Assembly (NCBI RefSeq): GCF_026571515.1
Contig: NW_026860451.1
Location: 1-64,000, forward strand
From: Ruditapes philippinarum
Taxonomy: Eukaryota
Length of the DNA stretch: 64,000 nt
Reading direction: 5' to 3'
In this document: piece by piece, positions 4,901 to 38,800 of the stretch
Numbering within the stretch: position 1 is the stretch's first letter
How the letters are laid out: the number at the start of each line of letters is the position of its first letter
The notes under the pieces: model-generated
What the model was told of the DNA's origin: nothing
What the model saw: only the letters and a program-made list of their open reading frames with translations
Database searches by the model: none
Made by a program: the position numbers and the translations under genes

Positions 4901-7900
4901 AGAAGGGCTCTTAGGGCCGACTCATCCTCCACCAGCAAAGCTGGAAAGTCTCCATATGACCTATACTTTGTTGTTGTGATGTTAAACCCATTCTCCTAAA
5001 AAAGCTAATAGTAGTCATCTGAATACTGTTACTGTTTCATTGAGCTATCTATATAATGTTGGGGAAACTAGTTTTAAAGTTGACTTGATTAAATATTTAA
5101 ATCTTTATTTTGTCAGATTTTCATGTTTTCTTTCCTAATAATAATAAATACTTTGATACACCATGGTTTTGATCCCCAATGATATTCTTGGAATTCAACA
5201 AATTCTGCAAAATAAATTATTTAAATATTTATTTTGGGAGCTTTTGTGTATACAGATAGTTCTGATAGGTATTTGCATGTTAGTAAGAGACTAAAATACA
5301 TTTAAACTGGCTGTATATTATCTTGCCAAAAACTAAGTTTTAAATCGTCGGGTGCAATTAACTTTTTTACTTACAGACTGCAGACATAATTTTGACAATG
5401 AAAGCTGAAGCTTCCATCAACAGTTTGGTATTTTTAAATGTAAGTACATGAGAAATATATAATGATACTAATTCTGTAAAATAGCATTAATTATTTTGAC
5501 TTGGTTATGAAGCTAAATAGTTGAGCTATGTTGTGATATAAATTTTGAACTATGCAGTGATATTTTTTGGTTTAAAATACATGTAGTAGCCACCAGTAAG
5601 TTTATATTTATTGATATAAGTTCAGTTTTGTTGAAAGCTATAAGCTTATTGAAACACTTTCCAATCGGTTCCTGTAACCAACAAGTACTTGTTCTAAGCA
5701 ATTAGTGCACGAAAACAAGGACTTGCTCCTGATGGGTTTGAACCCAAGTGGTCAGCAATCCTTTATTGCAAATTTATGTGCAATGCATGCAGCTAGCTAT
5801 GTAACAAAAAGCAAGGCCTCCAATCCAGCCTTCGCCTCTCAAACATTTTACAGACACATCAAAATTGTAATGAAATTGTTTTGGTTTTCTTATTAAAAAT
5901 GGCTTGATGATCATGTTATTTTAAAGTATTTCTTGTGTTTTATATATAATCAGAACGAAGTATGCTGCTATGGTGGAGAGGGAGGGGATGTCATATTTTA
6001 TGACATCGTCAGTGATAAACAACTATACAAGTGCGAGACCGGTACAAATAGGTAGGTTAAATAGGGGGTACTTGTTGGTGTACAATGATAATAGACTTTG
6101 TCTCACTGAAAAGTAAGAAATTTTCACGAGTTTCACATGTGCAAAGTGAGATATAGTCTGTTTTCACTGGAAAGATTTTTTTTCTTTTTGTTTTATGTTG
6201 CATTCAGCAAGGATTTTAGCCAGATGGTACCAAAATCGGTGCCAAGTTATTCCAGTTCATATAACGTTTCCACAAAAATGATAAAACTGTAAACCATTCT
6301 TATTTTGACTATGTGATAAGTAGACTGTCATATTCGTGTAAATTCACTACTCTTTGCCATACATAATTACCTAATTATAATGCAAAATTGCAAACATATA
6401 GCACCAACTTACAAATTAATACCCAATTTTTCAAATGTTCTGGAGTTTTTGTGATAACTCTGAAGATGTCCTAGAGTTCTTCTGATAACTTTTGTTGCTG
6501 CCAGTGTGTTTCTTGCGCTGAAGGATGAAGGTCAATACTTGCAAGAAATTTTACTCAAACTACCAGATTTTAAGCAAAAGGCGATAAAAATGGTACATGT
6601 TTATACATGAGTTTTTGACACATAATACAAGATGTAAGGCAAGCTTATTCATTAAAGTTTAATTTATCACCTAAATCTAACTTTTTAAAGATGAAAATTA
6701 CCATTTTTGACAAGTGTTTTTGTAGTATATACAAATGTTTTCAGACAAACTCTGTGACAGTTCTCCTGAAAAAGTTATCATAAGAACTGCATCTTTCGTT
6801 AACAGTTCCTCTCCCGTGGTACCATGCTCTCCAGAGGCTTGCATAAAATGATTTTATCCAACTTGTTCAATAAATAAAGTATTGAAACCTGAACTCTTTG
6901 TACAACATTAAAGTTTTCAGGTGCAAAAAAAAAGTGTCGGATCAACCCATTTGTTTTCAAAAAGTTACATACCATGTTCCCAACTACAATATGTAAAGTT
7001 TTAATAAAAAAAAGTGTTTTTGCAATAATTTTTGCAGGCCGTGTTTCTTTGACATATATTCACAAAAAGGACTTGCGAACTGTCACATGTGTTTTAATCT
7101 GCTCTTGGATTTATCTTTATTTAAGCAATAAAACATTGAAATTCTCTGGATTTTTTGGATATTATTGAACCTCAAAATCTCTGGATATTGATTTTGAAAA
7201 TGAAAAAGTGATTTGACTAGCAATTAAGCAAGGAACTGGTGAAACTAATCATAATTTGTATAAAATCTGGAAATATGTTATAGTTTTTACCAAAGGATTA
7301 GTACTTATCACTTACAAATATTTTGCTGTAAAAACAGGTATAATAGTTATATAGTGCTAAAATACATCAGGGTATTTATAAACCTTTGTGACAACAATAG
7401 CTGACTAAAAAGGTGATAATGGATCAAACAATGGGATTTAAATATTTCTAATTTTGAAGGCTTTTCTTTCAATGAAGTGTTAACAGACTGTCTGGAGATA
7501 GCAGAAAGCCAATATTTCTCTGTAAAAACAAGTGCTTGTGGAAACAATGTTACAATAACATTCTTTAAGAAAGAAATAAGTGACAGAATTAGAGAAATAC
7601 TACAACAACAATATACACTTGTTCCCAACATTGATAACACAGGCATTTCTATAAACAACAGAACTGTCATCCTTCAAAGTGGTGATCACATGGTATTATA
7701 ACAAAACAACCCTACTTATTCAGGGCAGTGGCAGTATATTGTGGACAAATACAATATTCAAATCTCTTGCCTCTCACATTGACAGTTTTCCAGAAAGTCC
7801 TCCTGACACTATCCTTGATGAACTGGACTCATCTGAGCTGACCTCAGTAGCTGAGTCTCCAGTTCAGACTTCAACACCTGCTGCCCCAAAAATCAAAGGT

Positions 7901-10900
7901 CAGAAATCTACACCAAGAGGATTTAAACACTTACTCTCAGACCTAATTTTTGGCCCTCCTGAATTAAATGCTCTTGTAAAATTAGCAGAAGAAAAGAAAA
8001 AAGCAGAAAAGATTCAAAAGAGGGGTGGACCTAAAGTAGATCTTGAAGAACTTGAAAGACAACGATCTATTATAGCAGAAACAGGGAAGAAACCAAAACA
8101 GAAACTTCACAAAATGCAACAAAAGAAACAAGCAGTGAATTCTTTCATCAGAACTGCAAATGGGTACGCTCATCCACCAATATCATTTGGGGATACAAAA
8201 TGTGAATCTGAAGAAACTTCACCTAAATCCTTGGATACTGAGTCAGAGCAGAGCTTTAAGCTGGCTAATCCTGTTCTTTCTATCATAGACAAATCAAACT
8301 CGGAAACCTCAGTGCCCGTCTCTACTGACACTACAGATCATATATCCTTTAATAATAACAGTGAAATTATCAATATGGATAGTGTTCCCCAGATTGACTG
8401 TGTAAATTTTTATGAGACCCCTAAAATGTATGAAAATCAAAACAATATTCAGCAATTTCAAAAGTTGAAAAAAGATAATGAAACACTGCAAAATGAAAAC
8501 GACAACCTTCAACATAAATATGCTAGTCTTTCAATAAAGCATGCTAGTCAAGATCAGCAAATTGCATCCTTGCAAAACGAAGCTGAATTTCAGAGAAAGG
8601 GACTATTTCAGATTACCAATCAAAAGACTCAGACTTAAATGCTGAAATTCAAATTTCCTAACGCTGAAATTGAAACCATGAAAAAAATCAAACAATTCAT
8701 TAAAACAAGAAAATAAGTCTCTGAAAGGAAAGATATCATCAAAACAAAATGATACATTTACCAGTGAAATCATTCAAAATGACATAGAGGAACTTAAGAA
8801 TACAATGTCAGAGTTTACAATGACAATCGACTCTTTAAAGAACAGAACAGAGAATCTTGCTTCTAGCACTGACATATATCTCCTTCAAGCAGAGATAAGA
8901 AATTACAAGAAAATAGTAACTGAAAACATGGAATTAAAACAGATGCATACAAGCGTTGATGCCCAAATTTCTTCTCAAGTGGATAACATGGCTGAAAACG
9001 CCTCAGTCGCACCAACAGAAAAATCTGAAATATTAGACAAAAACAATGGATCAAAACATTCAACAGAAAAAACAAAGGAAACCTCGGGTCAAAAGAAACA
9101 TGAGGTTCTGATTCTTGGTGATTCTGTGACAAAAGTGCTAAAGCCGAAAAAAATGAGTGGAAGTAAAATAAATACAAAAATCCGATCACACCCAGGTGCA
9201 AAGATCTGTGACATAACCAATAAAATTGTGAGTTCAGATGACAAAAGGATTCTGAAGGAGTGTGACGTTTTTGTCATACATGCAGGGATAAATAACATCT
9301 CAGACGGGGATAACGAAAATCTTATAACTGATGAACTAAATGATCTAACAAATCAGCTCCTAAAAGAAAATAGCGATGCTAAGGTGATAGTCTGCTCAGT
9401 GCTGCCAAAATGCAGAGATAATCTTGCAACAAAGATCATAGACACAAAAGTGAATACATCCATTAAGAATCTTTGTAAGCGTAAAGATCTCACATTTCTT
9501 GATAATACATCTGCTGTTATGTATCAAGGGACAGTTAATGATCAGTTGTATCAAGATGCTGTACACCTTACTAAAGGACGGGGAGCAGCAATCTTAGGTA
9601 AACAGATCAAAAGGGCCATATACTCGGCACTTGCCCTACCATATGAAAGTTCTGAGGATGTAAATTTTCCCAGGACAGCTCAACAACCAAAACATCCTCC
9701 ACATTACTCTCAATGCCAGCAAATGCAACAGAGGTTCCAAAGACCCCAGAGAACCAAAAATCAACTCAGGGAAAGAGCTCTCCAGAATCATTTCAGCACA
9801 CATCAACAGGAAACCTATTTCTCTCACTACAACTCATATCCCCATCCTCAAAAACGTATGAATTCCCATTCTCATCTACAGGACAATTCCCAGTCTTTCA
9901 AAAGCTTCAATACCCATCTTCAACAGAAGAATCCCATTCAAGTACATCCCCACTATCAACAGGTAAATACCAGTCCCCAACAAGTAAATCCCCATCCCCA
10001 ACTGGTCAATCCCCATCAGCAACAGGTCAATCACCATCCCAAACAGTTAACTCCCCATCAGCAACAGGTCAATCCCAATCCCCAACAAGTAATTCCCCAT
10101 CAGCAACAGGTCAATCCCAATCCCCAACAGGAAACTCCCCATCAGCAACAGGTAAATCCCAATCCCCACCAGGCAACTCCCCATCAGCAACAAGTCAATC
10201 CCCATCCCCAACAGGTAGCCCCCAATCAGCAACAGGTCAATCCCCATCCCCAACAGGTCGCTCCCCATCAGCAACAGGTCAATCCCCATCCCCAACTGGT
10301 AACTCCCCATCAGCAACAGGTCAATCCCCATCCCCAACAGGTAACTTCCCATCCTCAACATATCAATCCTCATTCCCCACAGTTCAAAATCCAACAGGAA
10401 AATCCCCATCATCAGCATGTCAATCCTTATCCGCAACAAGTCAGTCCCCATCATCAAAATGTCAATCCCCAATCACAACAGGTAAATCCACAAAAGACCA
10501 ATTCTTATCCTCAGCAGATCAATTCTTATCATCAACAGGACAATCATCATTCTCATGGAGTAGATCCTTATCCCTACAATGTCAATTCCCACCATCAACA
10601 GCTCAATCACCATCATCAACAGGTCAATCCATTTCATTACATGGAAGTACACCAACCAACTCAGTTTCAACAGAGCAAATCTTATCCTCAGATGATGCAG
10701 CAACAATCGATAACAACAAATCCATCATATTAAAAAGTGAAGATTGTAACAGTGATATCCTAAAAAAATTAAGTGAATTACGACAAAAAGATCTCAAACG
10801 TCCTTTGATAGCACATTTAAATATCAACAGTCTTAAATCAAAATACTTAGAAGTGCATGAAATTTTGAAGAGAAAATTAGTGGATATATTTATCTTATCT

Positions 10901-13900
10901 GAAACTAAGCTGGATGATAGCTTTAATAGCAACATTTTCCATTATAATGGATACAAAATTGATCGCCGGGATCGCAATAAATTTGGAGGGGGAATTCTTG
11001 TTTATTCACGTGATGATTTGCCATTCCGGAGAAAGAAAGACCTGGGGCCAGAAAATTTTGAATGCATGTGTTTTGAACTATCTTTAAATAAAAGAAAGTG
11101 GTGTATCCTGGCTCTTTACAAACCTCCTAATATCAAAAATGTGGATTTTACTAACACCTGCACTAATGTTCTTGATAGAACTTTAAGACAATATGAAAAC
11201 ATCCTGCTTCTTGGTGATCTGAACTTTGACATGAACAGGCTTGAAAAATCATCCACCCTTCGCGATATTTGTGATACATATAACCTTGAAAATGTTTGTA
11301 AAAGGAAACACATGCTTTATGAAAAATGCAAGTCCCTCAGCAATTGATGTTATTTTAACTAACAGATCAAATTTTATTTGTAACACAGAAAATTTAGATG
11401 TTGGTATCAGTGACTGTCACAATCTAGTAGCTACTACAATAAAAGAGCAGTGTTGTCAAACAAAACCTAAATATGTTAAATTTAGATCATACAAACATTT
11501 TAATGAGTCTGTTTTCAACACTGAAGCTTAGCAAAATTCCATTCCATATTGCAGATATTTTTGATGATATTGATGATTCATACTGGGCTTTTGAAACACT
11601 TTTCAAAGAAGTTGTAGATGAACATGCTCCAATAAAAGAACGCAAATTAAGATCACAAAAAGTTCCTTTCATGAATGGCGAATTGAGAAAATCAATCTAT
11701 AAAAAACAGCAACTAAGAAATTGCTATTTCAAATACCGTAATAACAAAAACTGGGAAAAGTTCCGCAAACAAAGAAATTTGGTCACAAAACTAAAAAGAG
11801 AGTCAATGGAAAAATATTTCTTTGAAAGGTGTAATGAAGGTCCAAAATCTAGCCACTTCTGGCCAACAATTAAACCATTTTTGACATCAAAATCTACAGC
11901 AAAGTCTGACAGCAAAATTATTCTTAATGAAAATGAGACCATAATATCAGACCAAAAGGAAATAAGTAATATTCTGAATGATTTTTATGTGAATATTGCT
12001 TGTGATATTGGTATAAAAACTGATGCTGATATTGATGAAACACATCCTAGCATAACACAAATATCTAAAAATCATCCATCAATAGATACTTTTCAATTTG
12101 CTCCAGTGAGCACTGATCAAACTTTTAAATTATTGAAAAAGTTTAAATTCAAAAAAGGCCATTGGTGTGGACAGCCTACCACCAAAGATAATTAAAGCAG
12201 GTGCGTATGCCCTGACAAATCCTATAACTTCGCTTATTAATAAAAGCTTTCAAACATCTCAATTTCCACAAGCTTTAAAACTAGCACAAGTTAAACCTCT
12301 GTTCAAAAAGGATGATCCTTTCCAAAAGAAAAATTACAGGCCTGTCAGCATCTTACCTACCATTTCAAAAGTTTTTGAAAAATCTATTAGTGCTCAACTT
12401 AACTTACATTTTGAAAACATTTTTCATGACTTTCTATCAGCATTCCGTAGAAATTTTGGCTGTCAGACAACATTACTGCGCCTCATTGAAGATTGGAAGA
12501 GAGCATTAGATAGAAATGAATATGTAGCTGCCATACTCATGGATCTGTCTAAGGCTTTTGACTGTCTTCCGCATGACCTGATTATTCTTAAACTTAAGGC
12601 CTATGGTCTGTCTGATGCCTCTGCTAATCTCATGCAAAGTTATTTGTTTAAAAGACAGCAACAAGTAAAACTAGGTACAATCTGTAGTGAGTGGAATGAA
12701 ATAAACAAAGGGGTTCCACAAGGGTCAATTCTTGGTCCCCTCTTATTTAACATTTTCTTAAATGATATATTTTATTTCATTAAAAAAGGTTCTGTTTATA
12801 ATTATGCAGACGACAATACCCTCTCATTTAATCATATTAATGTGGAAACTCTCAAAAGCACAATACAAGATGAAAGTGTTGTCATGATTAAATGGTTTGA
12901 AGACAATCTTATGCAAGCAAACCCTGAGAAGTTTCAGGCTATATGTATAGGCAAACAAACCTGTAAAAATGTGTCTAAATTCCAGATTCTTTGATGCCAC
13001 TATTCCTTGTGAATCTCATGTAAAACTTCTAGGTATTGAAATAGATTCCCTATTAAATTTTGATATTCATATCTCAAATGTTTGTAAAAAGTCAGCAAGA
13101 CAAATAAATGTATTAACCAGACTATGTCCTCTACTTAATCTGGATGCAAAAATTCTTATATACAAAAGTTTTATCAGATCCAACTTTAATTTCTGCCCTT
13201 TAGTCTGGCATTTTTGTAGTAAGGACAATACAAACAAGTTGGAAAAACTTCAATATAGAGCTCTGAAAATTGTTTTTAATGACTATTCATCAAGTTATGA
13301 AGATCTGCTTAAACTGACTAATATGTCTTCACTCCATATCAGTAGAATTAAACAACTCGCTATTGAAGTTTTTTAAATGTCTTAACAGCATTTCTCCTAA
13401 GTATGTTCAAGAACTTGTTAATGTGCGTTCATCAAATTATAATTTTAGATACCAAAAAACTTTAGATGTACCTAAAGTACGCACAACCAATTATGGTAAA
13501 AAGAGTTTTCGCTTTGAAGCATCTAAAATCTGGAATAGTTTATCTAATGATCTAAGATGTACATCTGACTTAAATGAGTTTAAACGACTAATTGAAACAT
13601 GGAGTAATGACAAGTGTGCCTGCTCTATGTGCATCTAATCGTTTATGTTCTATTTTACTTGATTCCTGTTTTTTTTTTTGCTTGTAAATAAATTTAGTCT
13701 TTTCCTTGAATTATGTACTATGTATCTGTATATATGTAAAACCCTGTTAATAGATATGACTGTATTTTTCATTGTAACCGCTCAGATTTCATTACAATGA
13801 CTATATAAATTAATTGTATGTATTATTATCTTATGGTGTCTGTTTATTTTTGTTTCTTTGTTTCTTATTATTATTTTCTATATTTTGTTCATGTCGGATA

Positions 13901-14661
13901 CAAGCTTAAAGCTTATGTTTTTGTACTGTTAATCATAACCGACTATAAATAAAGTTTGTCTTACTGTCTTACTGTCTTACTGTAAATGACTTCTTTTCAT
14001 CATCATTATTGACTCGAGTTAGTCCTGTGTTAAACTTGTTATTGTGATTGATGTTTCAGAGTAAAATGTTTCTGCATTAGCTCACATAACTTTAAAGAAG
14101 TCTTGGAGAAGAGAATTTTGTGTACAGTCAGTAGTGATGGTTTAATAAAACTATACAAGATCATAGAAAATCAGGTTGGTATTCTCAGTTTACAGTTTAT
14201 CTTATTGGTTGACCACCACGATAGTTTTAAGAACATCACAATGTAGAAATTGCCTCTTGTGGTGGAGGGTTGAGACATAAAAATTACAGCCACCGTTTAA
14301 CACTGTGTGATCCTAAGAGGCCATTTAATGGGTTTGCTTGGAATTACTTTATGCACCTTTTAGCTCCAGCAGATGAGGTGGTTTTGACCCCCCTTCATGT
14401 TGCTTTAAGTTTGTAACACCTGAGGTTAGCCAAAATCATCTTTCCTGTTTGGGCGCCATATGACCATAACTGTGTTGGTGGGCTGTTAAACCAAACAAAC
14501 AAACAAAATGTTGTTTTCCCTATGGATAACATCAGCTAGTGATATTTAAGTTGTGTATTTTGCATGTCATCTACCAAAATTGGCAAATTGCCCTTACTAC
14601 CTATTTATTTTTATCTTTTTATGCCACCGCAGCATCTGCGATGCGGTGGCATATAGCGATT

Positions 14662-14701
<40 letters not shown>

Positions 14702-17700
14702 TTTGTTTGTTTGTGTGTGTGTGTGTTATATAGATTATATAGTGAACTTAAAAAATCTTCTTGTGAAAAACCACTAGTCCAATTTCAACCAAACTTGGCA
14801 GGATTGATCCTTGGGTGAAGGGCTTCCAAAGTTGTTCAAAGAATTTAATTCCATGCAGAAATCTGGTTGCCATGGCAACAAAAAGGAATTATAAGAATAA
14901 ATTTAAAAAATCTTCTTGTAAAGACCCAAAAGGCCTAGAGCTTAGATATTTTGCATAAGGCATTGTCTGGTAGACCTCTACCAAGATTGTTCAAATTATA
15001 GCCCGGGGGTCATTGATTTTCACTATATGTACATATAGTAAAAACTTAAAATACCTTTTTATAAAGACCCATAGGCCTAGAGCTTAGATATTTTGCATAA
15101 GGCATTGTCTGGTAGACCTCTACCAATATTGTTCAAATTATAGCCCTGGGGTCAAAATCAGCCCTGCCCCGGGGGTCATGGATTTTCACTATATGTACAT
15201 ACAGTAAAATTTAAAATACCTTCTTGTAAAGACCCAAAAGGCCTAGAGCTTAGATATTTTGCATAAGGCATTGTCTGATAGACCTCTACCCAGATTGTTC
15301 AAATTATAGCCCTGGGGTCAAAATCGGCCCGGCCCCGGGGGTCATTGATTTTCCTCATATTTACATAGTAAAAACTTATAGTAAAAACTTTTAAAAAAAA
15401 TTCTTCTAGCAATTGACAAATGCTAGAGGTTAGATACTTTGCATGAACATTGTGAAGTGAAACTCTAGCAAGAATGTTCAAATAATAGCCCTGGGGTCAA
15501 AATTGCCCCCGCCCCGGGGTCATTGATTTTCAATATATACATATAGTAAAAAATCAAAAAAATCTTATTGTCTGAAGGTACTAGGCTTAGAGCTTTAATA
15601 TTTGTTAAATGATATCATCTTTAGGTACTCTACCAAAGTTGTTCAAATTTTGCCTCTAGTGTCAAAATTAAAAGTGAACTTTGATATCAGCTGACCTTGA
15701 TTTTGACAAAGTGTATTACATGTTGTCCTTTGATGCAGTCAAAAGAAATTTTAGGCTGTGTGAAATATGACCTTCACCACCAAATTCACTAGACTCAAGT
15801 GCATTGATATATTCCTACTCTGATCTTTTATTGAGTTAACAATAGATTTAACCACTAATCTGATAATAAGAATTAGATATGCATTATGACAATCTTCAAT
15901 TGTATAGAAACAAAAAAAAATCTGTTCCTACACTACTATTTAGTGTTGTATTAATGCGGTGGCATAGCATTTTTCTCAAATGCAATCTTTTTTAATTTTG
16001 TGTAATAAAGTAACTGTATGTCACGAAGGTAACATATTTACTTATATAATGTATAGTTTGTTCTTAAACTATCTTTTTTGTTGTTCTATATATCCCTGTC
16101 AATTTGTTAAATTATGTGTTTGTATATATTTCCTATATCATAATTTTTCGTTCCGGGTAACAATGTCACAATGTACAAACTAATGAACCAACTACATGTA
16201 TACATTACATCTATCATTCTTGTGAAATATTTTATTCAAAATATCAAAATATACATGTAAATTTTAAGATCGCGCTTGGTATATTCATGTTTGATTTGTC
16301 AGATGTACCATTTGGCTCTGAAGAGATTGCGTATGCCTGTCGTCAGCTATCCATGTGCAAGCCATCTAAAAATATTTTCAGAGTCACTCATCCTGTTCTA
16401 AATCCAATTTGCAGGCAACTTTTTATGCCCCCGCCATGTAATGGCCGGGGCATATAGTGTTACCCTGTTCCGTCATTCCGTCCTTCCATCCTTCCGTCCT
16501 TCCGTCATTCTGTCATTCCGTCATCATCAGTTTCCGTTCATTATCTTAAGAACGGTTGGGCACATTCAACTCAAATTTGACATATGGATATGTCATGAGA
16601 AAATACAGGTCAATTTCGAATTAGGTCATGGTTCGATGATTTTTGGCAGAGTTATGCCCCTTTTACTTTGAAAATAATATGAAATTTCAGTTTCCGTTCA
16701 TTATCTCAAGAACGGTTGGACACATTCAAAGCTCAAAACTTGACATATGGATATGTTTATGAGAAAATACAGGTCAAGTTCGAATTTGGTTATGGTTCGA
16801 TGATTTTTGGCAGAGTTATGCCCCTTTTACTTTGAAAATAATATGAAATTTTCAGTTTCCGTTCATTATCTCCCCAACGGTACAACACAATCAACTCAAA
16901 CTTGACATATGGATATGTCATTGAGAAAATACAGGTCAAGTTCGAATTGGTCATGGTTCGATGATTTTTTGGCAGAGTTATGCCCCTTTCACTTTGAAAA
17001 TAATATTAAATTTTCAGTTTCCGTTCAATTATCTCCCTCAAGGTACAACACATTCAACTCAAACGTGACATATTGATGCGTCAAAGGAATGCGCAGGTCA
17101 AGTTCAAATTTGGTCGTGGTTGATGATTTTGCAGAGTTATGCCCTTTCACTTTGAAAGTAATATGAAATTTTTCAGTTTCCGTTTATTATCTCCCAACAG
17201 TACAACACATTCAACTCAAACTTGAACATAATGGATATGTTTTTGGAATGCCAGGTCAAGTTCAAATTTGGTCATGGTTCAATGATTTTTGGCAGAGTAA
17301 TGCCCCTTTCACTTTGAAAATAATATGAAATTTACAGTTTCTGTTCATTATCTACCTAACAGTGTTACATATTCAATTTTAATTTGACATATGGATATGT
17401 CAAAGGAATGGGCAGGTCAAGTTGGAATTTGGTCATGGTTTGATGGTTTTTTGGCAGAGTTATGTCCCTTTCACTTTGAAAATAATATAGATACATCTTA
17501 GGAATAAGCAGTTTAAGTTTGAATATGGTCGTGGTTCAATGATTTTAGACAAACTTATCTTTCCTGAATGTTGGAAAAATTTTGAACTTTCAGTTTCAGC
17601 ACTCATTCTTTTAGCCATTATTTTGGCTACAAATATGCAATATGCTTTTTCTAAAGGTTAAGACTGAATAATTTCAGTGCCTTGAACGTTGTATGGAAAT

Positions 17701-20700
17701 GGTTTGTGTTAACATTGAAAAGTTTTAAGGGCTTTGAACTTAAAATGAAAAAAAAAATTAATGCACCATCTGAAATTTTGGCTGCATGCGGGGGCATCCG
17801 TGGCATGATGACACATTTCTAGTTTCTACTTGTCCTGCATCGAGTTCTCTTAAATTCTGCTCGTAGTTACAAGCTTACAAGTGGAATTTTCTATCTTTGA
17901 TGGTGCGGACTTTAAAGAGTTTACCCAAAGCTGTTGGTACCGGAAGTGATAAGTCTTTGCATTCAGTAGAGCCAGACCATGCCGTCTGCCTAGGGTTACC
18001 TGTATATACTATTGGTTGTCTAACTTTAAATTTTCAATTTGATATCCCATAAATTGACAATGGACAGTTCTAAAACATGGAATTGGTATAGTACATTAAA
18101 GAAATTCAGCAGGTTAAGGAAATATTTTTTCATCATAGTTTCCTTTAATAAGGGTACTAGGTCCTTTTAACAACTATACCTTGAAAACTTTCTTTCAGAA
18201 GAAAATTTCTACAGAGTTGTTGATTGAACATAGATCAGGATTTAGAGTTACATGTCTCGCTGTATTGGGAAAAGATGATGATAACAGTTCTCCACATGAA
18301 GGAGTTAAACTAGAGAAAACTGTAACAAAACACAATGACAACGATGATGGTGGTGGCAGTGATGATGATGATGAAAGTGATGATGATGATTCTAACAGTG
18401 ACACCCCAGATGTCACTGATGCAAATAAACTTTCTAGAGCAAAAAGTGAAAAAACTGAAGTGAAAGTAAATAACAACAAAACTGATGTGAAGCCAAAAAA
18501 CAGAAAAAGGAAATTTATTGAGTCTAGTAAAGATCAGCAGATAGTTCACCCAAGTCCTGTAAATAAACAACAGAAAGTTGGCAAACAACAAAAAAATAAA
18601 AAGCAACATGAAGTGGTAACGAAAGGTATGTGATATGTATATTCTAACCATTTTTAAAGTTGCTTTGCTCAACAACAAAAGAAATAATATTTTGGTGTAT
18701 AAACTGTCTGCAATATGTATTGAAAGAATGAAGAGATTAATATCTTGTATATTTATTTTGTACAGATTCTTTTTGTACTAATACCAGAATGTTCTTCAAC
18801 CAATTGAGTTAAATTACACAGTTTAACCTGGTTGAAAATTTCTTTTAGCTTAATTTGCGTGATTGTCTGATTTCATATATAAACAGCATATAGCAGTGTG
18901 CCCTGAACTTATTTTCAGTTTGGTATATTATCAAAGAGAACTAATTGAGTGTTGATTTTCTCTTGTTTTGAATAAAAATTAAAAAAAAATGATTTTTAGC
19001 TCAACTATTTAAAGAATAAGAAGAGCTTTTGTACTCACTCTGGTATCATTGACTCAAGATACTTGATAGGTGAACACTGGCTAAGGCCCATAACTTTAAC
19101 ATAGATTTTGATGAATTACAGCTTTTTTGAAATTCTACATTATCTCAGACTTCTGTTTTGCTATCAGTTTTGCATTTTGAACAGATGTCAAGGCCATTAC
19201 TGTTTATTTTATACAGAATTTTATTTTAGTTTTTGTTGGAAGTTATAAGCTTACTGAAACACTATTCAGTCTGTTCCTGGAACCAACCTATAATAAGCAA
19301 CAAATGTCGAGGATACAATGGCTTGCCCTTAACAGGGTTTGAAACCATACAGCCAGTAGACTACTTATACTTTAATCACTCGGCCGTGCCACCATGTAAA
19401 TGTAAACTATTTGAATTTTTTCCTTCACATAAGAAATATAATAATATAATGTAATATTTTGCACCAATTCAATGTAAGCAAGTTATTTGGTAGTATAATT
19501 ATATATCATTGCCTGAATGGTAAGTTTGTGAATTTGATATGTTTTTTAGCTCACCTGTCACAAAGTGACAGGGTGAGCTTTTGTGATCGCTTTTCGTCCG
19601 GCGTCCGTCCGTAAACTTTTACTTTAAATGACATCTCCTCATAAACCACTAAGCCAATTTCATCCAAACTTCACAGGAATGTTCCTTTGGTGGTCACCTT
19701 TAAAAATTGTTCAAAGAATTAAATTCCATGCAGAACTCTGGTTGCCATGGCAACCGAAAGAAAAAACTTTAAATATCTTCTTTTAAAAAACCCCAAGAGC
19801 TAGAGCTTAGATATTTGGCATGAAACATCTTCTAATGAGTGTCTACAAAGTTTGTTCAAATAAAAGCCCTAGGGGGTCTTTGATTTTCCCTATATGCATA
19901 TAGTAAAAACTTAAAATATCTTCTTTTAAAGAACCCAAAGAGCTAGAGCTAAGATATTTAGCATGAAATATCTTCTTATGAGTGTCTACCAAGTTTGTTC
20001 AAATAAAAGCCCTGGGGTCAAAATTGTCCCTGCCCCAGGAGGTCATTGATTTTCCCTATATGCATATAGTAAAAACTTAAAAATCTTCTTTGAAAAAACC
20101 CAAATAGCTAGAGTTTAGATATTAGGCATGAAACATTTTCTAGTGAGTGTCTACCAAGTTTGTTCAAATAAAAGCCCTTGGGTCAAAATTGGCCCCGCCC
20201 CGGGGGTCATTGATTTTCCATATATGCATATAGTAAAAACTTAAAAAATCTTCTTTTAAAGAACTCAAAGAGCTAGAGCTAAGATATTTAGCATGAAACA
20301 TGTTCTAATGGGTGTCTACCAAGTTTGTCAAATAAAAGCCCTTGAGTCAAAATTGGCCCCGCCCCGGGGGTCATTGATTTTCCTTATATGTATATAGCAA
20401 AAACTTAAAAAATCTTCTTTGAAAAAACCAAAATAGCTAGAGTTTAGATATTAAGCATGAAACATCTTCTAGCGAGTGTCTACAAAGTTTGTTCAAATAA
20501 AAGCCCTGGAGTCAAAATTGGCCCCGCACCGGGTATTATTGATTTTCCTTATATTTGTATAGTAAAAACTTAAAAATCTTCTTTGAAAAAACCCAAATAG
20601 CTAGAGTTTAGATATTAAGCATGAAACATCTTCTAGTAATTGTCTACAAAGTTTGTTCAAATAAAAGCCCTGGGGTCAAAATTGGCCCCGCCCCAGGGGT

Positions 20701-21192
20701 GTCATTGGTTTTAACTATATGTGTATAGTAAAAACTTAAAAAATCTTCTTTTAAAAAAACCCAATGAGCTAGAGCTTAGATGTTTAGCATGAAACATCTT
20801 CTTATGGGTGTCTACCAAGTTTGTTCAAATAAAAGCAGTAGATCTTTGTTTTTCATTATATGTGTGTAGAAAAAACTTAACATCGTGAAACATCTTCTAA
20901 TGGTTGTCTTCCAAGTTTGTTTAAATAAAAGCCCTGGGGTTTAAACTGGCCCCGCTCCGGGTGCCTTTATACAGGTGAGCGACCTCAGGGCCATCATGGC
21001 CCTCTTGTTATTCTCTTGCCATGTTACTAAAGGACTATGATTGTGTTTTAAATCATGACAAATGTTTAACACAATTTCATGTATATACATCTATTTTCAG
21101 ATGATACAGTGTCATTTATTACCGCTGCTGACAGTAGAAAGAAAAAGTTCAAGAAAAAGAAGAAACCTAAGAAATTTGTCAAAACGATATGA
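1982..21192 (+). CDS. PAK1IP1: PAK1-interacting protein 1 (Mak11-like WD40 60S biogenesis factor); 5'-partial, 9 exons in window
   Basis: Exons 1982-2147, 2699-2816, 3214-3341, 4335-4417, 5377-5439, 5954-6051, 14060-14174, 18199-18625, 21101-21192 (TGA), all GT-AG with matching phases. Protein has FTDHSHAGCVKCVA, LASGSSDETIRL, WECLRTFKGH, VSVHPSGKLALTVGRD, WNLITGRSAYITNLK, VKWSPDGEKY, FRVTCL, then acidic and Lys-rich tail. First coding exon not found in the window. Confidence 0.93.
3815..3935. repeat. Degenerate ~40-bp tandem repeat, about 3 copies
   Basis: Recurring CAGTACTGG(T/A)CAAT..AGC(T/A)CCAGCAT units. Confidence 0.5.
4449..4675. mobile_element. Palindromic MITE, Sola2-like
   Basis: GAGCC...GGCTC termini, near whole-element inverted repeat (GCATGGATCCAGACCAGCCTG / CAGGCTGGTCTGGATCCATGC), 4-bp TSD AAAT on both sides; GRG termini with 4-bp TSD are characteristic of Sola2. 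Confidence 0.8.
4735..4990 (+). mobile_element. tRNA-derived SINE (degenerate)
   Basis: Degenerate tRNA-like head, body ending CTGGAAAGTCTCCATATGACCTATAC...GTTAAACCC; related 3' ends at ~14455-14505, ~33090-33140 (-) and ~47245. Confidence 0.55.
7419..10733 (+). CDS. LINE ORF1: coiled coil, SGNH/GDSL esterase, Q/H/P/N-rich repeat tail (several 1-nt frameshifts in the 5' half)
   Basis: ORF pieces 7477-7701, 7679-8638, 8805-10733; SGNH blocks VLILGDS, HPGA, HAGINNI, DAVHL; (QQVNPHP/HQQQVNP)n tail. Start at 7419 is inferred by removing one A from a run. Confidence 0.8.
9713..13638 (+). CDS. LINE ORF2: S/T/P-rich leader, APE endonuclease, reverse transcriptase (frameshifted in this assembly)
   Basis: ORF pieces 9713-11347, 11241-11531, 11473-12195, 12167-12994, 12969-13376, 13363-13638. 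Motifs HLNINSL, ILSETKL, GGGILVY, LLGDLNFD, IDVIL, SDCH, NYRPVSILP, DLSKAFD, GVPQGSILGPLLF, YADD, KLLGI; C-terminal CACSMC. Confidence 0.92.
9940..10500 (+). repeat. 21-nt coding tandem repeat with 42-nt higher-order unit
   Basis: Alternating CAACAGGTCAATCCCCATCCC / CAACAGGTAACTCCCCATCAG units. Confidence 0.9.
14616..15990 (+). mobile_element. Non-autonomous Helentron/HINE-like element with (GT)n and ~145-165-bp internal tandem repeats
   Basis: 5' TATGCCACCGCA...TGCGGTGGCATA hairpin, GT microsatellite, about 5 repeats containing CCTAGAGCTTAGATATTTTGC, 3' subterminal TGCGGTGGCATA plus short hairpin, T-rich flanks. Confidence 0.75.
16420..17825 (+). mobile_element. Non-autonomous Helentron/HINE-like element with ~160-bp tandem repeats (6 or more)
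   Basis: TTTTTATGCCCCCG...CGGGGCATA start, (TCCG)-type microsatellite, units starting CAGTTTCCGTTCATTATC at ~16528, 16688, 16853, 17015, 17174, 17335; end CGGGGGCAT...CTAGTTT. Confidence 0.8.
19225..19392 (-). mobile_element. tRNA-derived SINE (degenerate)
   Basis: Minus-strand GGCCGAGTGATTAAAG head, B-box-like GTTTCAAACCC, core GGTTCCAGGAACAGA. Confidence 0.5.
19543..21009 (+). mobile_element. Non-autonomous Helentron/HINE-like element with ~165-bp tandem repeats
   Basis: TTTTTAGCTCACCTG...GGTGAGC 5' hairpin, (GTCC)n, about 7 units with AGCTAGAG(C/T)TTAGATATT and AAAAGCCCTGGGGTCAAAATTGG, 3' CAGGTGAGCGAC...AGGGCCATCATGGCCCT hairpin. A 5' fragment recurs at ~21450-21560. Confidence 0.8.
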
Positions 21193-22949: not shown

Positions 22950-25868
22950 CTGAGAATTCCTATAAAACCAGCTGGCATAAACTGTCTAGTTTTTATAAAC
23001 CTGAATCCCATAACACACATTAATGTTGCACTTGTTCCTGAAATAAATGTTGAAATCTTATTAAACTGGAGCTGTTTTAGCATTGCATTCACAGAATAAT
23101 TTTCATTATTATTACTGCACTATACACACAGTACAAATCAGGGACTTGGTATGAAATGATTGTAACAAACAGACAGTTTTCAGTTTTGGCATGAAACAAA
23201 AATAGAAATAAACAATAAACTTTATAGGCCTTAAGTTTATTCTTAATCTTTTCCATAATCAGCAAATGATAATGATTGAAGAATTAAAATTGCAATATTA
23301 AGCAATATATTTCTACAAGAGCTTTAATTCTGTGAAATAAGATTCTGAGATCTATTGCCACGATTGTCATAATTACTTTATTGCGAAAGTAGGGTCAAAA
23401 TCAATGTCATGGTCATGCATTAAACAGGGAATATCAAAGTAAATCCTTTAGTTGGGACTGCCAAACACAAAATCCAACACAAAATCAGCTAACATTTAAA
23501 CTGGGACAGACCGACAAGAAAACATGTGATACAAATTGCCAGTCTGAATTATTTGCTGTTCTATAGAAACCAGACACTTTGAGTGAGCCAGGAAAATACA
23601 ATGTCTTTTTTTTTTTAAGCCGCACTATCACTGCATGGCAACTTTCCTGTTTTCCTGGTGGAAGAAATCTTCTAGTCCCTTCGACCTGTATGCAGCATTT
23701 CAGATACAAGTAGAACCACTGATTTGCCTTAAGAAACTTTCAAAGGTGGACATCTACAAAGGAAACTGGCTGGAAGTACATACTATCTCAGAGTGTATTT
23801 TTTTTTAAAGTTTTTCTCTATACATCATAATTATTCAGGTTAAGCATATGACCTTTGGTGCAAGGCCCTAGGGGTATAATTTGAACGATGTTGGTAGAGA
23901 ACAAATTACTAAACAGTGCTATTTGTTAAATAACAAGCATTATTATTTATTCAAATAACCCTAATTTTAATCAATATCTTATATAAGTACATATGTGTTG
24001 TGCCTATATTGCTAAAATTGTCTCCGTTGTGCCATGAAATGCCCATTTTGCCAGGCATATATGATATAACCCTTCAATGCAATTAAACATACACAATTTA
24101 TGAAACATTTTTAAACTAACTTACTCACTAGTGCTAAACAGGGCCCGTAAAATCTGATTTTGAATTATATACTTGCCCGTTTTTATGAGAAGCATTTTTT
24201 AACTTGTCCGTATGATATTTACATAGTTCTTGAAAACTTTCACTTGTCCGTACAGGCTGTGGGACAACCTGGGCAATACGGAAAGTTGATTTTGCCGGCC
24301 CTGGCTAAACAATCATTTTAGATGCTCAAATGTAACCTAATGACTTCAATTAAAGCGCTGTGCTGTTTTTTGTTGTTTTTTTATTAAAGAATATCTCCGT
24401 TGAGCCAAAAAATCTCCATTGCGTATTTTAGTGGTATCCAATATCGAGGCCTTCCAAGAATTTTTGGACAAGATTTTTTTATTACACATATAATAAGACC
24501 AAGCTGCAGCCCAGAATTCTTAAAGTTTGACATAAATTAATAGTAAGAGCTGACCAATATGCCATGTGATTTTTAAGAACAAACTTAACAAGATCTTGTA
24601 TGGCATGGCCATGGTATAGTTGTACATGTATATGGAATGTAATTCTTTGAATAACTTTGGTAGACCTACAGCTTCATGCAATGAATTTATATCCCTGCCT
24701 GGTTTCCCCAGTGGTATCAGAGATGAAGAAATTTATGGACACATGATGTATCTCGACTTTAAATAAGAACAAGAACTGTCGGAGGCCAGTAAAACTCGAC
24801 TATTCGAAAAGTTGTCACAAGGGTGTTTCATTGAGTATAATAATGCTTACCTATATAAATACATAAAATTGTCTGAAAAGGTACAAAGGCTTGTTATTAA
24901 GATGTTTTATCGAGTAAATCACTGCTTTATTATGAATGCATAAAATTGTCCCAAAAAAAGGCACAAACCCTTCTGTATTTATGGAGATACCAGCTAAAAG
25001 CAAAACCTTAACCAAGAATTTCTAAGCCGAAAAAGGGGCATAATTATGAAAAAAACAAATCAAGAGTTATGGGACTTGTGCAAATCATGTAAGATAATCA
25101 CAGAGAACAAATGTGTGAAGTTTCAATCCATTCCCTTCAATAGTTATGGAGATACCACTGCTTACACGCAAAAACTTAACCAAGAATTTCTAAGTTGAAG
25201 AAGGGGCATAATTGTGCAAAAAAGCAAATCAGAGTTATGGGACTTGTGCCAATCATGTAAGATAATCACAGAGAACAAGTGTGTGAAGTTTCAATCCTAT
25301 CCCTTCAGTTGTTTTGAAAATACCAGCTAACACGCAAAAACTGAACCACAGGGACGCGGACGCTGATAAATGGGTGACTGCATTAGCCCGATTATTCTGC
25401 GAATAGTCCAGCTAAAAAAAACATTGAAGTATATGTGAGGATCAGAAATAAATCCTAATGTCTAACACAGGCACTTTGTATTATTTAAGCTTATAAAGGC
25501 ATAGAACTACATAATTAACAAAGGTATTGTCTACTACCTAAAGATAATCTTATATCTTTGCGGTTCTGTGATGTCTGGTATGCTCCCACTGCTGCCAATG
25601 AGCCAAAAGTCAGTCCAGCTGCTAAGGAAGGCAAGCTAGCTAAAAATATTTCAATAAAAAAGTTTAAATAGTGGTATTTTAAATGAACTTTACAAATGTC
25701 CGAAATTCTGTTGTCCGAAAAACATACTGCTTAACAACAATTACGTGCGCCGGAAAAATCTATGGAATGGCAATCAAGTATTTCAAGCTTACCTGATTTT
25801 ACATAGCCCATTACCCCACCTCCAGCAACTATGGCGGCATAAGAATATCCTATTATATCTGCAGGCAT
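22950..25868 (-). CDS. TMEM14C: TMEM14C-like protein, tandem paralogue (canonical last exon not found)
   Basis: Exons 25868-25793, 25639-25538, 23037-22950 with the same sizes (76, 102, 88 nt) as the upstream copy: MPADIIGYSYAAIVAGGGVMGYVKSASLPSLAAGLTFGSLAAVGAYQTSQNRKDIRLSLGTSATLMCVMGFRFIKTRQFMPAGFIGILS. Confidence 0.85.
24139..24303. mobile_element. hAT-like MITE in TMEM14 paralogue intron
   Basis: CAGGGCC...GGCCCTG termini; GCTAAA(CA) repeated at both flanks. Confidence 0.6.
24768..25420 (-). mobile_element. Helentron/HINE-like element with two to three ~170-bp repeats
   Basis: Duplicated AAGGGGCATAATT...GAGTTATGGGACTTGTG...GTGTGAAGTTTCAATCC units; terminal ATTATTC...GAATAGTCCAGCTAAAAA hairpin. 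Confidence 0.6.
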
Positions 25869-26419: not shown

Positions 26420-27664
26420 TACCTCTGACACCTTGATCCCAAAAATCCAGTGAGGTCAGCATCTGACCAAAAGCAATGCATCTCTTAAGATTGAAGGTCA
26501 CGGGTTCATATGTTGTCCAGTTATTGATAGGAAACCGTTTTGACATAAAAGGTTAATGTGAACTTGACCTTTGACCCCTTATCCCAAAATCAAAAGAGGT
26601 CATCAAATTGGCAAACCTTTAAACTTTTCGTGCCAAAGGCCCATGGCTTGTTAAGTTATTGATCAATAAAACTGTTTTTACCTACAAGGGTCAATATGAC
26701 CTTTACCCCTGACCCCAAATTCAATAGGGTCATCTTCTTGCCAAGACCAATGCACCTACAAAGTTTGAGGGCCAACATCCAATGGGTTGTCAAGTTATTG
26801 GTTGAAAACCATTTTTACCTACAAGGTCAATATGACATTGACCTTTGACCCCAAAATCAATAGGGGTCATCTACTAGCCAAATCCAATGCACGGATTGTC
26901 AAGTTATTGATTAGAAACCTTATTTACCTTCAAGGTCAATGTAACCTTGATCTTTGACCCTAAAATCAATAGGGGCCATCTACTGGTTATGAACAATCGT
27001 TGTACCAAGTTTGAAGTTCCTAGGCCTAAGCGGATCATAAACTGTTTTAAACTACAAGGTTAATGTGACTTTGACCTTTGACCCCAAAATCAATAGGGGT
27101 CATATACTGGTCATGAACAATCATCATACAATGTTAGAAGTTCCTAGACCTAAGCTATCAGAAACCGTTTTTACCTTCAAGGTCAGTGTGACATTGACCT
27201 TTGACCTCAAAATCAGTAGGGGTTATTTACTGGTCATGAACACTCATCATACTAAGTTTGAAGTTCCTAGGCCTAAGCATTCTTAAGTCATTGATCAGAA
27301 ACCGTTTTTACCTAAAAGGTCAGTGTGACCTTGACATTTGACTCCAAAAATGAATAGGGGTCATCTACTGGTCATGTACAATCATCAAACCAAGTTTGAA
27401 GTTCCTAGGCCTAAGTATCCTTAGTAATTCATCAGAAACTGTTTTTACCTACAATGACAATGTGACCTTGACCTTTGACCCCAAAATGAATGGGGGTTAT
27501 CTGCTGGTCATGTACAATCATCATACCAAGTTTGAAGTTCCTACCTCTAAGTGTTCTTTAGAATAGTTATTGATCGGAAACCAGTTGGTCTACGGACCGA
27601 GGGACCTACTAACAGACAAATGCAAATCAATATCACCCCACTTCTTTGGAAGGGGGTATAATAA
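26420..27664 (-). repeat. ~120-bp tandem array, probably internal repeats of a Helentron-like element
   Basis: About 9 units of TGACCTTTGACCCCAAAATCAATAGGGGTCATCTACTGG...AAGTTTGAAGTTCCTAGGCCTAAG, ending in ACCCC...GGGGGTATAA. Confidence 0.75.
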
Positions 27665-35867: not shown

Positions 35868-38800
35868 TCAGAACCAGTCGTAATCGGGAATGTTGCCATA
35901 CTCATCATAGATGTCATTTTCCCAGTAATCCGAGTACACATCCTCATCATCATAGGACAGGTCTTCGTCCTCTTCAGGGTCATCATCAGGATAGTCAATC
36001 TGGTATGTTGCTTGACTCCGAACACCGAAGTACTTGCAGTGCGGGCAGTCAATGTGACATCTCACAAGATTAGATGGAATCTTGGCAACCACTACTCCAC
36101 TGTTTGTAATTGCCTTTGGCGCTTCTTGAAGTGTTTCCCATTTTCTATTCTCGAGATCATATTTACATGCACTAGTTAGCAAATTCTTTCCACTTTTCCC
36201 CCCAATCACATAAAGTTCACTCTGATGGGTTGAGTATATGAAGTCAGATCTTGATGGCTCGTCCAGAGGATGTGGAACGAGAATATCCTTGCCGGAGGAC
36301 CATCGACGCGTGTTGATGTCAAACTTTTGGTACCGGTAACAACCTTGTTTCGTCAGGAACACCTCATTTTTTATAGCGAACATAAACTGCTCATGTTTCA
36401 CACCTCTAGAATGCTCCTGCTGCTTCATATTTTTTGTGTCTGTTGTAAAAAATCTAACACTCTTTGTTCTTTGCCTAGAAGTACCACCAGCTCCACATTT
36501 TGAGCACAGCACTGCAACATATCTGTCCTCCACAATACATGTTGTTACCTCTGTTTTAACATTTCTAGAACACAATGGAATCACAACATCACAGTTCAGC
36601 ATATCAGTTGATACCCGAAACAAATAAACCATCCATTGAGGCAAGGTTCCACTTTTAGCACCGACAGATCGACCTGACGCTATGATGTACATTCTGTTGT
36701 TTACCATCAGGATATTCTGTATAGTAATATCACGGAATGGTTTAGGCAGAGTCATATGTATGGTTGTCCAAGATTTGTCAGTGACACTATACTTAAACAG
36801 GAAGGCCTCATTGTCATCAATAACAGCACTAGTGCTTGCATCATATACATATAGTGAGCTTGTGTTGTTACAGAAAGCCACTAAAGGGCGCCTCATTGAG
36901 AAAGGAAGGGGAGCTAACTCTGTCCACCTATTTTCATTGATTATGTAACCGTACACATGATTTATGGAGATTATATCTGATATAGGAAGGAATGGCACAG
37001 CAAAGAACGAGTGAAACAGCTGACCCATTCCACAACCACCGACAACCAGAATGACCTCACTGTTGGCTTCATCTGGCAACAGTCCAGCCATATGCTTCAT
37101 CTTTACATTCAGAACATGAACTTTGCATTTGTCTGAACTAACAACCAGAGGCGAGGTTTCTACATTATTCTCCAAATACTCTCTTGGCATTTTTTTCAGA
37201 TCAAGCTCACAGAACAAGCTCTCGAAGTGTGACTCTCTTCTCTTTAAATCATGCTCTACCCATCTGATAATAAATTTATAGAAATCTGTCACGGGAACAT
37301 AGTTGAGGGACTTATCCTTTAACATTTCTAATATTGACTCAGCTGTCAAACTCAGAGTATCTTCTAGCTCCATAACTTCCGGTAAATGCCCTCGAATATA
37401 GTCAAACACTTTATTGTAAATGTCAAGGTCATACAAACTGGCTAGAAGACAAAGATGAACACAATTGCTAACATTGACATCTACTCCTAATAGGTAATTT
37501 GTACACGCTGTTTTCAGGTCATCGATTTGCAGGTAGTCGGCCACCTCTAGGATGTCTTTTACAGTACTATACGAGAGCTGTAGTGTACCAGTGTACAGAA
37601 ATGTAACAGCTGATCTCACTGCCAATACCTTACCGATGCTTATATGTATTTTCCCTGTCAAAAAAAAACAAGAGATTACAATACTAAATGAAGATGAAAC
37701 TTCAACAATTTTCTGCTTTTCTGTGTAATTACTGGGAAACAATTTCATTCTTTTTGTATTTTAACAGATTAAAAGAACATTCATTTTGTTACACAAACAA
37801 ATTTTCTTTATATAAAATTTGCAGAAAGTAAAAAAAAAAGTCAAAAACAATTCAGTTTCTTATTGATAATTCAAATGTATGGTAATAAAATTTATTTAAC
37901 TATTAGAATTTAAAATTTCAAGTTATTCAAAGTGTCTGTGTTAGTAAAATTAACAGTCAATCCTATACTAAAGATCAACTCTGTACTAATACAGGACTTA
38001 AGGTACCACATTGGTTCAAACCCTGCTGGATTCACAAGCATATTTCCTCATATGGTTCCGGTACTATTTTCAGGAACCAGACTTATGAGTGTTCCAAAAA
38101 AAAAAGATTTAAGCTTTAATTCATGGGTGCCAGTTTAAAATATCAGAAAACCTGAAAACCCTAAATACAGCATTACTTCAAATGGTTTTATATATGCAAA
38201 TGTCTGAAAATTTAAACCCATGTTAATTCTAGATCAAGCCTTTGTGAAGCTAAAATAAAACATGTTTAACTTTAAAAAATTTAAAAATAATTAAACACAC
38301 ACCCTTCCCATAATGACAATCTATTCATTTGTCAATTGTGTACATAAATGCAAAGAATACTTTTTCTAATAGACTACATGTACCTGTCGATATAGACCAT
38401 TTCTTATTTTACAAAGACTTGCCCTTACAGACCAGTTTGATTTTATAGCCGAAAAAGATTTTAAGCAAAATTTTTTTGGTGTGTACACATTTTTCTAATA
38501 TGTTGCCTGCTTCCTTTTGTTAAACTTTTCTAACATGATTGTTGCTCACATCCTTTTAGTCACTATAATCTGAAATCTTACAATTCTGTCAAAATGATTA
38601 CAATGCTGAATTACAGAAAAACATAATTACAGAATCTTGACCTACCGGCTTGCTTTTCTGACATTCCACTATTGTACAAAGACTGGAAATATGGACACGA
38701 CACCAAAACACACCAATGAGCCTTCATTTCCTTCAGTACAAAAAGACACTTGGTTAGATAAAAAGCAGTACATCTTTTTGCTTAGAATAAATTGAAAATA

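Follow-up and report, generated by a model that had tools for sequence, protein, structure and literature searches.

How the second open reading frame (ORF) of a long interspersed nuclear element (LINE) comes to be translated is a long-standing question, to which the studied cases answer with reinitiation or coupling (L1, SART1) or with 2A skipping. The question arises again in the first 64,000 nucleotides (nt) of contig NW_026860451.1 of Ruditapes philippinarum (the window, by which we mean this whole stretch), where a LINE of a family that we call F1 has its ORF2 in the −1 frame of ORF1. A first-pass annotation, made from the letters of the window alone, proposed that the two are joined by a programmed −1 ribosomal frameshift at an A_AAT_TTT heptamer. 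Comparison with other copies, other families and other hosts supports that interpretation, and a programmed −1 shift at A_AAU_UUU_C very probably makes the ORF2 product.

The element behaves as a LINE: its copies are dispersed, share a 3′ end, can be truncated at the 5′ end and lack long terminal repeats (LTRs), and contig depth climbs toward the 3′ end. Copies occur at no fewer than five loci, one of them (C3006) 5′-truncated and beginning at window position 10418. Because the four other copies sit at different loci and are about 99% (C14645, C1824 and C3006) or 98% (C13651) identical to that of the window at aligned bases, F1 is a young family; comparison with the other loci gave no clear target-site duplication for the window element. 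ORF1 truly starts near the ATG at 7419, ends at the TAA at 10733 and is open in the window copy from 8682 onwards. It is a type IV (esterase) ORF1, with an SGNH esterase above the Pfam cutoff and, upstream of it, coiled-coil matches that are all below the cutoff (the type has a coiled coil or leucine zipper there), and its Q/H/P-rich tail is partly built from a 21-nt tandem array. ORF2 carries Exo_endo_phos followed by RVT_1, the order of non-LTR elements of the apurinic/apyrimidinic endonuclease (APE) type with their reverse transcriptase (RT), and in the window copy it holds five 1-nt assembly errors.

The −1 frame opens after the TGA at 9653–9655 and runs past the ORF1 stop into the endonuclease domain, as the first-pass annotation had it, giving 563 open codons (9656–11347); ahead of 9653, 324 codons of that frame hold 37 stops. 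In the overlap itself no stop occurs in 358 codons, against 9.5 expected from synonymous-codon shuffles of ORF1, none of which (0 of 5,000) reached zero. The earlier worry that the frame might be open by chance is justified for the 21-nt repeat alone, which is stop-free in 409 of 5,000 shuffles and hence weak evidence, not for the overlap as a whole. The non-repeat parts taken separately are stop-free in 55 and 101 of 5,000 shuffles, and the reverse test, which holds the −1 peptide fixed and asks how often the ORF1 frame stays open, is less telling (173 of 5,000). Since ORF1 reads GTA AAT TTT CCC at this point, A_AAT_TTT (9662–9668) stands in exact X_XXY_YYZ register, and sequence and Pfam agree that it lies just after the SGNH esterase; it is the sole in-register heptamer of this form between 8682 and 10733. 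The window copy and three further young ones agree exactly in heptamer and TGA (4/4), and an older copy, 85% identical, has A_ACT_TTT in place of the heptamer. The young genomic copies have no −1-frame stops here: none of their 41 substitutions in the non-repeat overlap makes one, although the expected number, about 2.7, is too small to decide.

Frameshifts in this genome need read support, because the assembly is poorly polished: compared with the window, genomic copies show 40, 181 and 68 1-nt indels, clustered in stretches, and few substitutions. The frame breaks of the window copy (8599–8681, 11295, 11526, 12136, 12990 and 13369–71) are long-read assembly errors, given that other genomic copies differ there and short-read contigs lack them; between 8682 and 11295 no break sets the window apart from all other copies. 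Reads were checked through the contigs of sequencing runs, which drop rare forms and cover the region outside the 21-nt array (9957–10489); runs X21–X24 shared no words with it and were not counted as evidence. Contigs of four of four runs have neither indel nor substitution at 9653–9672, and the ORF1 stop and −1 junction are indel-free in four of four runs and in young copies C3006, C14645 and C13651, with local indels in the noisy young copy C1824. The extra base that would turn the two ORFs into one thus appears at the site in neither reads nor copies. We therefore reject assembly error or decay at the site, where copies and run contigs are unchanged and true errors lie elsewhere, as well as a single fused ORF in F1, which is absent from every copy and run checked. 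A 230-nt skip inside ORF1 (8552–8783), which the DNA contigs of two runs show in a diverged copy, is a deletion variant present as DNA.

Much of the evidence comes from relatives in the same genome. Of 145 esterase matches, 67 loci were examined and 63 of these aligned; by eye they sort into 15 families with esterase identities of 30–92%, mostly 30–67%. Forty-three aligned loci carry AAATTTTC 20–110 nt past the esterase, 40 of them listed as in register; of the others, one comes after a premature stop and two have been displaced by an indel close by. Ten, all of family F14, carry TCATTTTC, and the ten with neither site comprise eight distant esterases (23–28% identity), one truncated and one decayed copy. 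Counted by family, 14 of 15 have an in-register A_AAT_TTT_C just past the esterase and F14 has T_CAT_TTT_C, whereas elsewhere in these elements A_AAT_TTT is in register 13 times in 15,652 other codons. Throughout the 14 families that encode Asn-Phe here, the preceding codon ends in A, its amino acid being V, G, E or I; Asn is AAT (background 0.59) and Phe is TTT (background 0.53). The base after the heptamer is C in 15 of 15. These eight positions are the only near-invariant ones around the site. The second base before them favours G more weakly, and GCCA tends to appear 6 nt beyond; the flanks vary, as does the esterase-to-site distance (35–77 nt across families). The site is conserved at the nucleotide rather than the amino-acid level, as a frameshift signal should be, and both heptamer and register have been kept while the esterases diverged.

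The −1 frame is open behind the site in these families too. From the site to the ORF1 stop, 14 sister representatives have no −1-frame stop in 655 codons (about 65 expected), compared with 208 in 2,100 codons of the same frame upstream, and in intact copies the frame runs on into the endonuclease (noisy copies break earlier). In F11 (locus L115) 1,074 codons are open from the site across endonuclease and RT with no Met before the HLNI motif; in F3, F7 and F8 the first −1-frame Met is the residue directly before HLNI. Family F3 leaves no room for an upstream start, because the frame opens two codons before the site. Sister ORF1 tails are W/P/R-rich and 32–60 residues long, and the overlaps span 34–62 codons; the 354-residue Q/H/P tail and 1.08-kb overlap, correctly described in the window, are thus an expansion particular to F1.

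Several further features of these elements were recorded. At the 3′ ends of the sister esterase-ORF1 families (L096–L132) an inverted motif, GAGGC...GCCTC, precedes AATAAA and a tail of (TTAC)n or (TTA)n units, and conservation is much stronger in the 3′ sequence than in the remaining untranslated region. A W/P/M-rich motif (PWNPW, PPWM, MPVP) recurs at the end of the ORF1 tails past the site (L026–L052); many homologues read F-x-x-G-R...G-R-R, which together with that motif may be a protein or RNA element. Esterase ORFs of 23–28% identity (L063–L072) mostly stop just past the domain and lack the site, and for most the fetched stretch shows no downstream endonuclease; they are possibly non-autonomous or belong to other elements.

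Relatives in another host suggest which part of the site matters. Three of five animal-type loci in that host's contigs have T_TAT_TTT_C (L133), C_CAT_TTT_C (L135) or C_TAT_TTT_C (L137), with ORF2 seen in the −1 frame in L133 and L135; another, L136, is cut off before the motif. Among 150 protein representatives listed, 69 score 100 bits or more on an esterase-only profile and have a tail of 25 amino acids (aa) or longer; [NHYD]F[PHQRL] occurs within 45 residues in 45 of these 69, against 10.5 in shuffles (maximum 20), and in 13 of 36 weaker listed homologues against 3.0 in shuffles. The xAU codons encode precisely N, H, Y and D, and C-starting codons P, H, Q, R and L, so the conserved core, as read from these alignments, is xAU_UUU_C. 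The canonical heptamer of the first-pass annotation accordingly stands for the window and 14 of 15 families, which combine in-register X_XXY_YYZ with ORF2 in −1, and not as a strict X_XXY_YYZ rule: F14, L133, L135 and L137 have xAU_UUU only.

We hypothesize that a minority of ribosomes slip by −1 at the site and go on to make a fusion of ORF1, linker, endonuclease and RT of about 2,070 aa, and that most finish ORF1p, of about 1,100 aa, with its Q/H/P tail (lengths from coordinates, assembly indels discounted). The tRNA-Phe on U_UUU and the tRNA-Asn on A_AAU would re-pair on AAA UUU, and reading would resume at UCC to give ...EDVNF-SQDSSTTK. As some members keep only xAU_UUU_C, slippage of tRNA-Phe is probably the essential step. 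The rate of shifting could be low, or could be set by a bound protein, the C-starting codon or the nascent chain rather than by a local RNA fold; a protein stimulator or a low rate, on the model of arterivirus nsp2TF, is a guess. ORF1 and its site would then form a portable cassette able to drive any ORF2 placed behind it in the −1 frame. We rejected a +1 shift of the influenza PA-X kind at UUU_C, ORF2 being in −1 in intact copies.

The history of F1 bears on that last idea. Its RT is 62–70% identical to those of its five closest single-ORF relatives, 45–56% to three more and 33–40% to those of esterase-ORF1 families. RT and endonuclease trees part the single-ORF group, with F1, from the esterase-ORF1 families at 100/100 (the trees are unrooted, and F3 is missing from the RT tree), and the 3′ motif of F1 goes with the single-ORF group. 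The F1 esterase, in contrast to this ORF2, falls among the sister families (FastTree, modest support), which form a separate, unnamed RT clade. The single-ORF relatives open with an AUG, a 2A-like GDIxxNPGP and a PHD finger before APE–RT. F1 lacks this head and has its ORF2 in −1 behind the site. F1 is therefore most simply read as a chimera in which the ORF2 and 3′ end of the single-ORF lineage stand behind a foreign ORF1, joined near the ORF1 stop; we infer the direction of the ORF1–ORF2 exchange. It would, again most simply, have lost the start codon of the donor, expanded the repeat without closing either frame and then spread. The first-pass label ‘CR1-type’ probably suits ORF2, where 2A/PHD single-ORF relatives and the 8-nt tail, a CR1 hallmark, point to CR1; it does not extend to ORF1, which came with its site from another RT lineage. 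Mollusc examples of 2A are CR1 or Ingi elements, and 2A is also described in L2, Crack and Rex1 (PMC3708506). Loci L143–L168 and L169–L176 include several LINE families with the AUG, 2A-like GDIxxNPGP and PHD-finger single-ORF layout; the frame of L169 is open for 1,067 codons.

Other routes to ORF2 deserve weighing against a frameshift. ORF2 might initiate independently, at AUG 9713 by leaky scanning or internal entry or by reinitiation of the L1 kind, independent of any AUG, in the vicinity of the ORF1 stop, with the heptamer incidental; we consider this unlikely. Initiation has precedents in L1, whose ORF2 can start at any sense codon (PMC1965478), and in SART1, with UAAUG coupling (PMC3708506). 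Many sister families have a Met 22–59 codons past the site, and AUG 9713 is retained in all five F1 copies, which counts against frameshifting. It is, however, the sole −1-frame ATG before the endonuclease, as the first-pass annotation had noted; its context (CTCTCA ATG C) is weak, 45 ATG triplets precede it within the element and it lies 1 kb ahead of the ORF1 stop. The sister Mets are variable and originate in A+TGG (Trp) codons belonging to ORF1; F11 lacks any Met ahead of its endonuclease, and F3, F7 and F8 have one only within the first motif. At the junction, other copies have TAT TAA ATA G where the window has TAT TAA AAA G, and neither contains UAAUG. Reinitiation at 10731 would be indifferent to a −1-frame stop at 10604 seen in one run, yet it accounts neither for the opening of the frame at the site nor for conservation at the synonymous level. 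The same conservation bears on the reading of N-F as a protein motif of the ORF1 tail, with the open frame a by-product of low complexity. N and F are indeed invariant columns of the esterase alignment, many homologues continue F-x-x-G-R and the repeat by itself often stays open under shuffling, but four positions show no synonymous variation across 14 families, N is swapped only for xAU residues and the stop-free sister overlaps are not repetitive. This reading also leaves ORF2 of F11 without a start; the shuffle and sister-overlap tests have largely refuted it, and we give it very little weight.

Two further alternatives would act on the RNA, and both seem highly improbable. In a spliced transcript the T-run would be a polypyrimidine tract and TTTTCCCAG, before the G at 9673, an acceptor joining an upstream exon to the ORF2 frame. 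F1, F2 and F3, and these three only, do have an AG 5 nt past the heptamer that falls in phase 0 for the −1 frame; across the 15 families the first AG ends 3–56 nt downstream in all three phases. Contigs of RNA runs (X19 on record as RNA, X5 by guess) cross the site unjoined, with the reservation that contigs drop rare forms, and a spliced ORF2 mRNA should have been copied into the genome, where none was seen among the loci examined. Polymerase slippage, adding a base in the A3U4 run of some transcripts, would yield the same fusion without RNA structure and would fit an invariant part that is the U4 run. Runs of three or four are short for polymerase slippage, however, and the process could do without the constant codon register of 41 of the 43 loci; transcripts lengthened by one base should also yield single-ORF genomic copies, which are absent from those checked.

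One point against a frameshift is the want of a stimulator. The doubt already voiced over a missing downstream pseudoknot was well placed: the window fold gives z 0.31 and local folds −1.5 to +1.7 in 15 families, two consensus folds are weak or empty, and no convincing 3′ stem-loop or pseudoknot appears 5–9 nt downstream in predictions made without explicit pseudoknot modelling. Families F9, F11 and F12 have in common a short helix, 5 nt downstream and closing a loop of about 55 nt, in which 2 of 25 pairs show double changes. Pairing of the site with the 3′ tail looked promising in a biased first test and was dropped when it faded against control windows, F14 excepted: in 12 of 13 families 6–35% of control windows pair as well or better, so specific pairing with the 3′ end is not supported. 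The purine-rich segment after the F14 site (L123 and others) pairs best with its own 3′ end, at −19 kcal/mol with 0% of controls better. In F1, AGGACAG (9671–9677) complements the tail unit CTGTCTT (13957–13983) over 7 bp, with 10% of controls better, which is not significant; the older copy C14609 has AAGACAG, and relatives’ tails are (TTATC)n or (TGTATCT)n.

The remaining counter-evidence concerns the site and its surroundings. The 15 families are related and so do not amount to 15 independent events (about 11 lineages fall below 70% esterase identity). Non-canonical heptamers occur among them, and the classic tandem-slip model does not cover all members, since the sites of F14 and the three from the other host re-pair poorly in the P site. 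A fourth locus of that host, L134, is decayed and lacks the motif. So, as defined, do 24 of the 69 homologues, several with S/G/T-F, and the share of carriers may be inflated because the search profile included the NF columns. A_AAT_TTT also stands in register inside ORF2 at 11053 and 12451, followed by G, so the heptamer alone is tolerated; no depletion of U_UUU_C is evident elsewhere in coding frames (30 of 157, against about 18% expected). Older copies carry five and two −1-frame stops in the overlap. Changes at 10602 and 10604 create a −1-frame TAA in the contig of one of four runs (X5), which may be a dead copy, as five young genomic copies lack this stop and it is unlisted for the other three runs. 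Overlap changes in C13651 are silent in 9 of 23 cases in the ORF1 frame and in 3 of 23 in the −1 frame, implying that the linker is not constrained as protein.

A −1 shift for a LINE ORF2 is already known as a kind. For TRE5-A and TRE3-A of Dictyostelium, the only LINEs for which we found it stated, ORF2 is said to require one (PMC5911963); like F1 they are two-ORF, APE-type non-LTR elements with ORF2 in −1. They are, however, amoebozoan, tRNA-gene-targeted and oligo(A)-tailed, whereas those described here are animal CR1-group elements with an esterase ORF1, an internal site, overlaps of 34–356 codons and an xAU_UUU_C core. What is new is an internal, structure-free site carried across an ORF2 swap, and this site is real and probably functional. 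The X_XXY_YYZ sites of retroviruses, LTR elements and plant viruses likewise use an in-register heptamer to fuse structural protein and polymerase, and G_GAU_UUU of pea enation mosaic virus (umbravirus) has AU_UUU in common with the F1 site (PMC5009743). Unlike these viral sites, the F1 type belongs to a LINE, has no detected 3′ stem-loop or pseudoknot 5–9 nt on and in some members re-pairs at U_UUU only. A model for the missing stimulator is arterivirus nsp2TF, where the shift occurs inside a long ORF and is stimulated by nsp1beta and PCBP with no RNA fold (PMC5009743); it differs in being viral and mainly −2.

Among LINEs, type IV CR1/L2 elements share the architecture of coiled-coil and SGNH-esterase ORF1 with APE and RT in ORF2, and exchange of ORF1 between LINE lineages has been described; the survey found esterase ORF1s in two vertebrate subgroups only (PMC4120745). 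The word ‘frameshift’ is absent from the main text of that survey and of PMC13343379. We found no frameshift site described in the literature on CR1/L2-group LINEs, a search whose bounds left out Repbase reports, subscription papers and supplements that could hold one. CR1-1_CGi and CR1-1_LG have the single-ORF 2A/PHD layout of the nearest ORF2 relatives of F1 (PMC3708506), from which F1 differs in lacking the 2A/PHD head and having a foreign ORF1 and slip site. L1 and Zorro3 take initiation-based routes to ORF2 (PMC1965478).

Taken at its broadest, the proposal is that a wide group of invertebrate LINEs makes a Gag-Pol-like endonuclease–RT fusion through a structure-free −1 shift at xAU_UUU_C, possibly switched on by a protein such as ORF1p, and that this portable cassette captured an unrelated 2A/PHD ORF2 in a family spreading now; we regard that wider claim as evenly balanced. 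If these elements do shift, ORF2p would be joined in a single chain to coiled coils and a membrane-targeting esterase and be made at a fixed ratio, like retroviral Gag-Pol; swaps of ORF1 between LINE lineages without loss of ORF2 expression would be explained; and consensus annotations in which ORF2 begins at the first Met would be mistaken for these elements. A −1 site without an RNA stimulator, tolerant of poor P-site pairing, would be of interest to the recoding field, and a site unchanged to the letter in families so deeply diverged offers an exact and cheap test.

Table 1. Positions in the window of the F1 element and its parts
Feature	Position	Strand	Basis or remark
Full-length young LINE (family F1), ~6.9 kb	7068..13983	+	5′ start common to three other loci; flanks differ
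ORF1, ~1,100 aa with assembly indels discounted: coiled coils, SGNH esterase, Q/H/P-rich tail	7419..10733	+	
SGNH/GDSL esterase domain	9096..9623	+	Pfam Lipase_GDSL_2, E 1.8e-8; GDS, GINN and DAVH motifs; family alignment
Last −1-frame stop before the site, TGA	9653..9655	+	
Dual-open overlap: ORF1 tail (frame 0) over S/P/T/G/Q-rich ORF2 linker (−1 frame)	9656..10733	+	
Candidate −1 shift site, A_AAT_TTT and conserved C	9662..9669	+	
Only −1-frame AUG before the endonuclease	9713..9715	+	Codon +17, ahead of the HLNI motif
21-nt tandem array, ~26 copies, open in both frames	9957..10489	+	Unit number varies between copies
Approximate putative chimera junction: −1-frame homology to single-ORF 2A/PHD elements starts around the ORF1 stop	10667..10790	+	Local alignment to L143
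ORF2: endonuclease from 10817, RT ~12308–12952, C terminus ending CxCxxC	10817..13638	+	Domain matches
3′ end: GTCGG...CCGAC inverted motif, AATAAA (13948), (TGTCTTAC)3 tail	13893..13983	+	Type found in single-ORF relatives

The rest of the window holds features of other kinds. An uninterrupted 630-codon ORF on the minus strand (35868–37760) with BTB, BACK and Kelch domains is a host KLHL-like gene or retrogene. At 40265–41205, inverted arrays of 21-nt units (arms up to 188 nt, 92% complementary) surround a 0.4-kb core with a short open frame, in what looks like a non-autonomous DNA transposon. Tandem arrays of 110–170-nt units lie at 15002–15378, 16527–17488, 19872–20836, 24964–25348 and 26787–27543, some beside short microsatellites; they resemble Helitron- or HINE-type core repeats.

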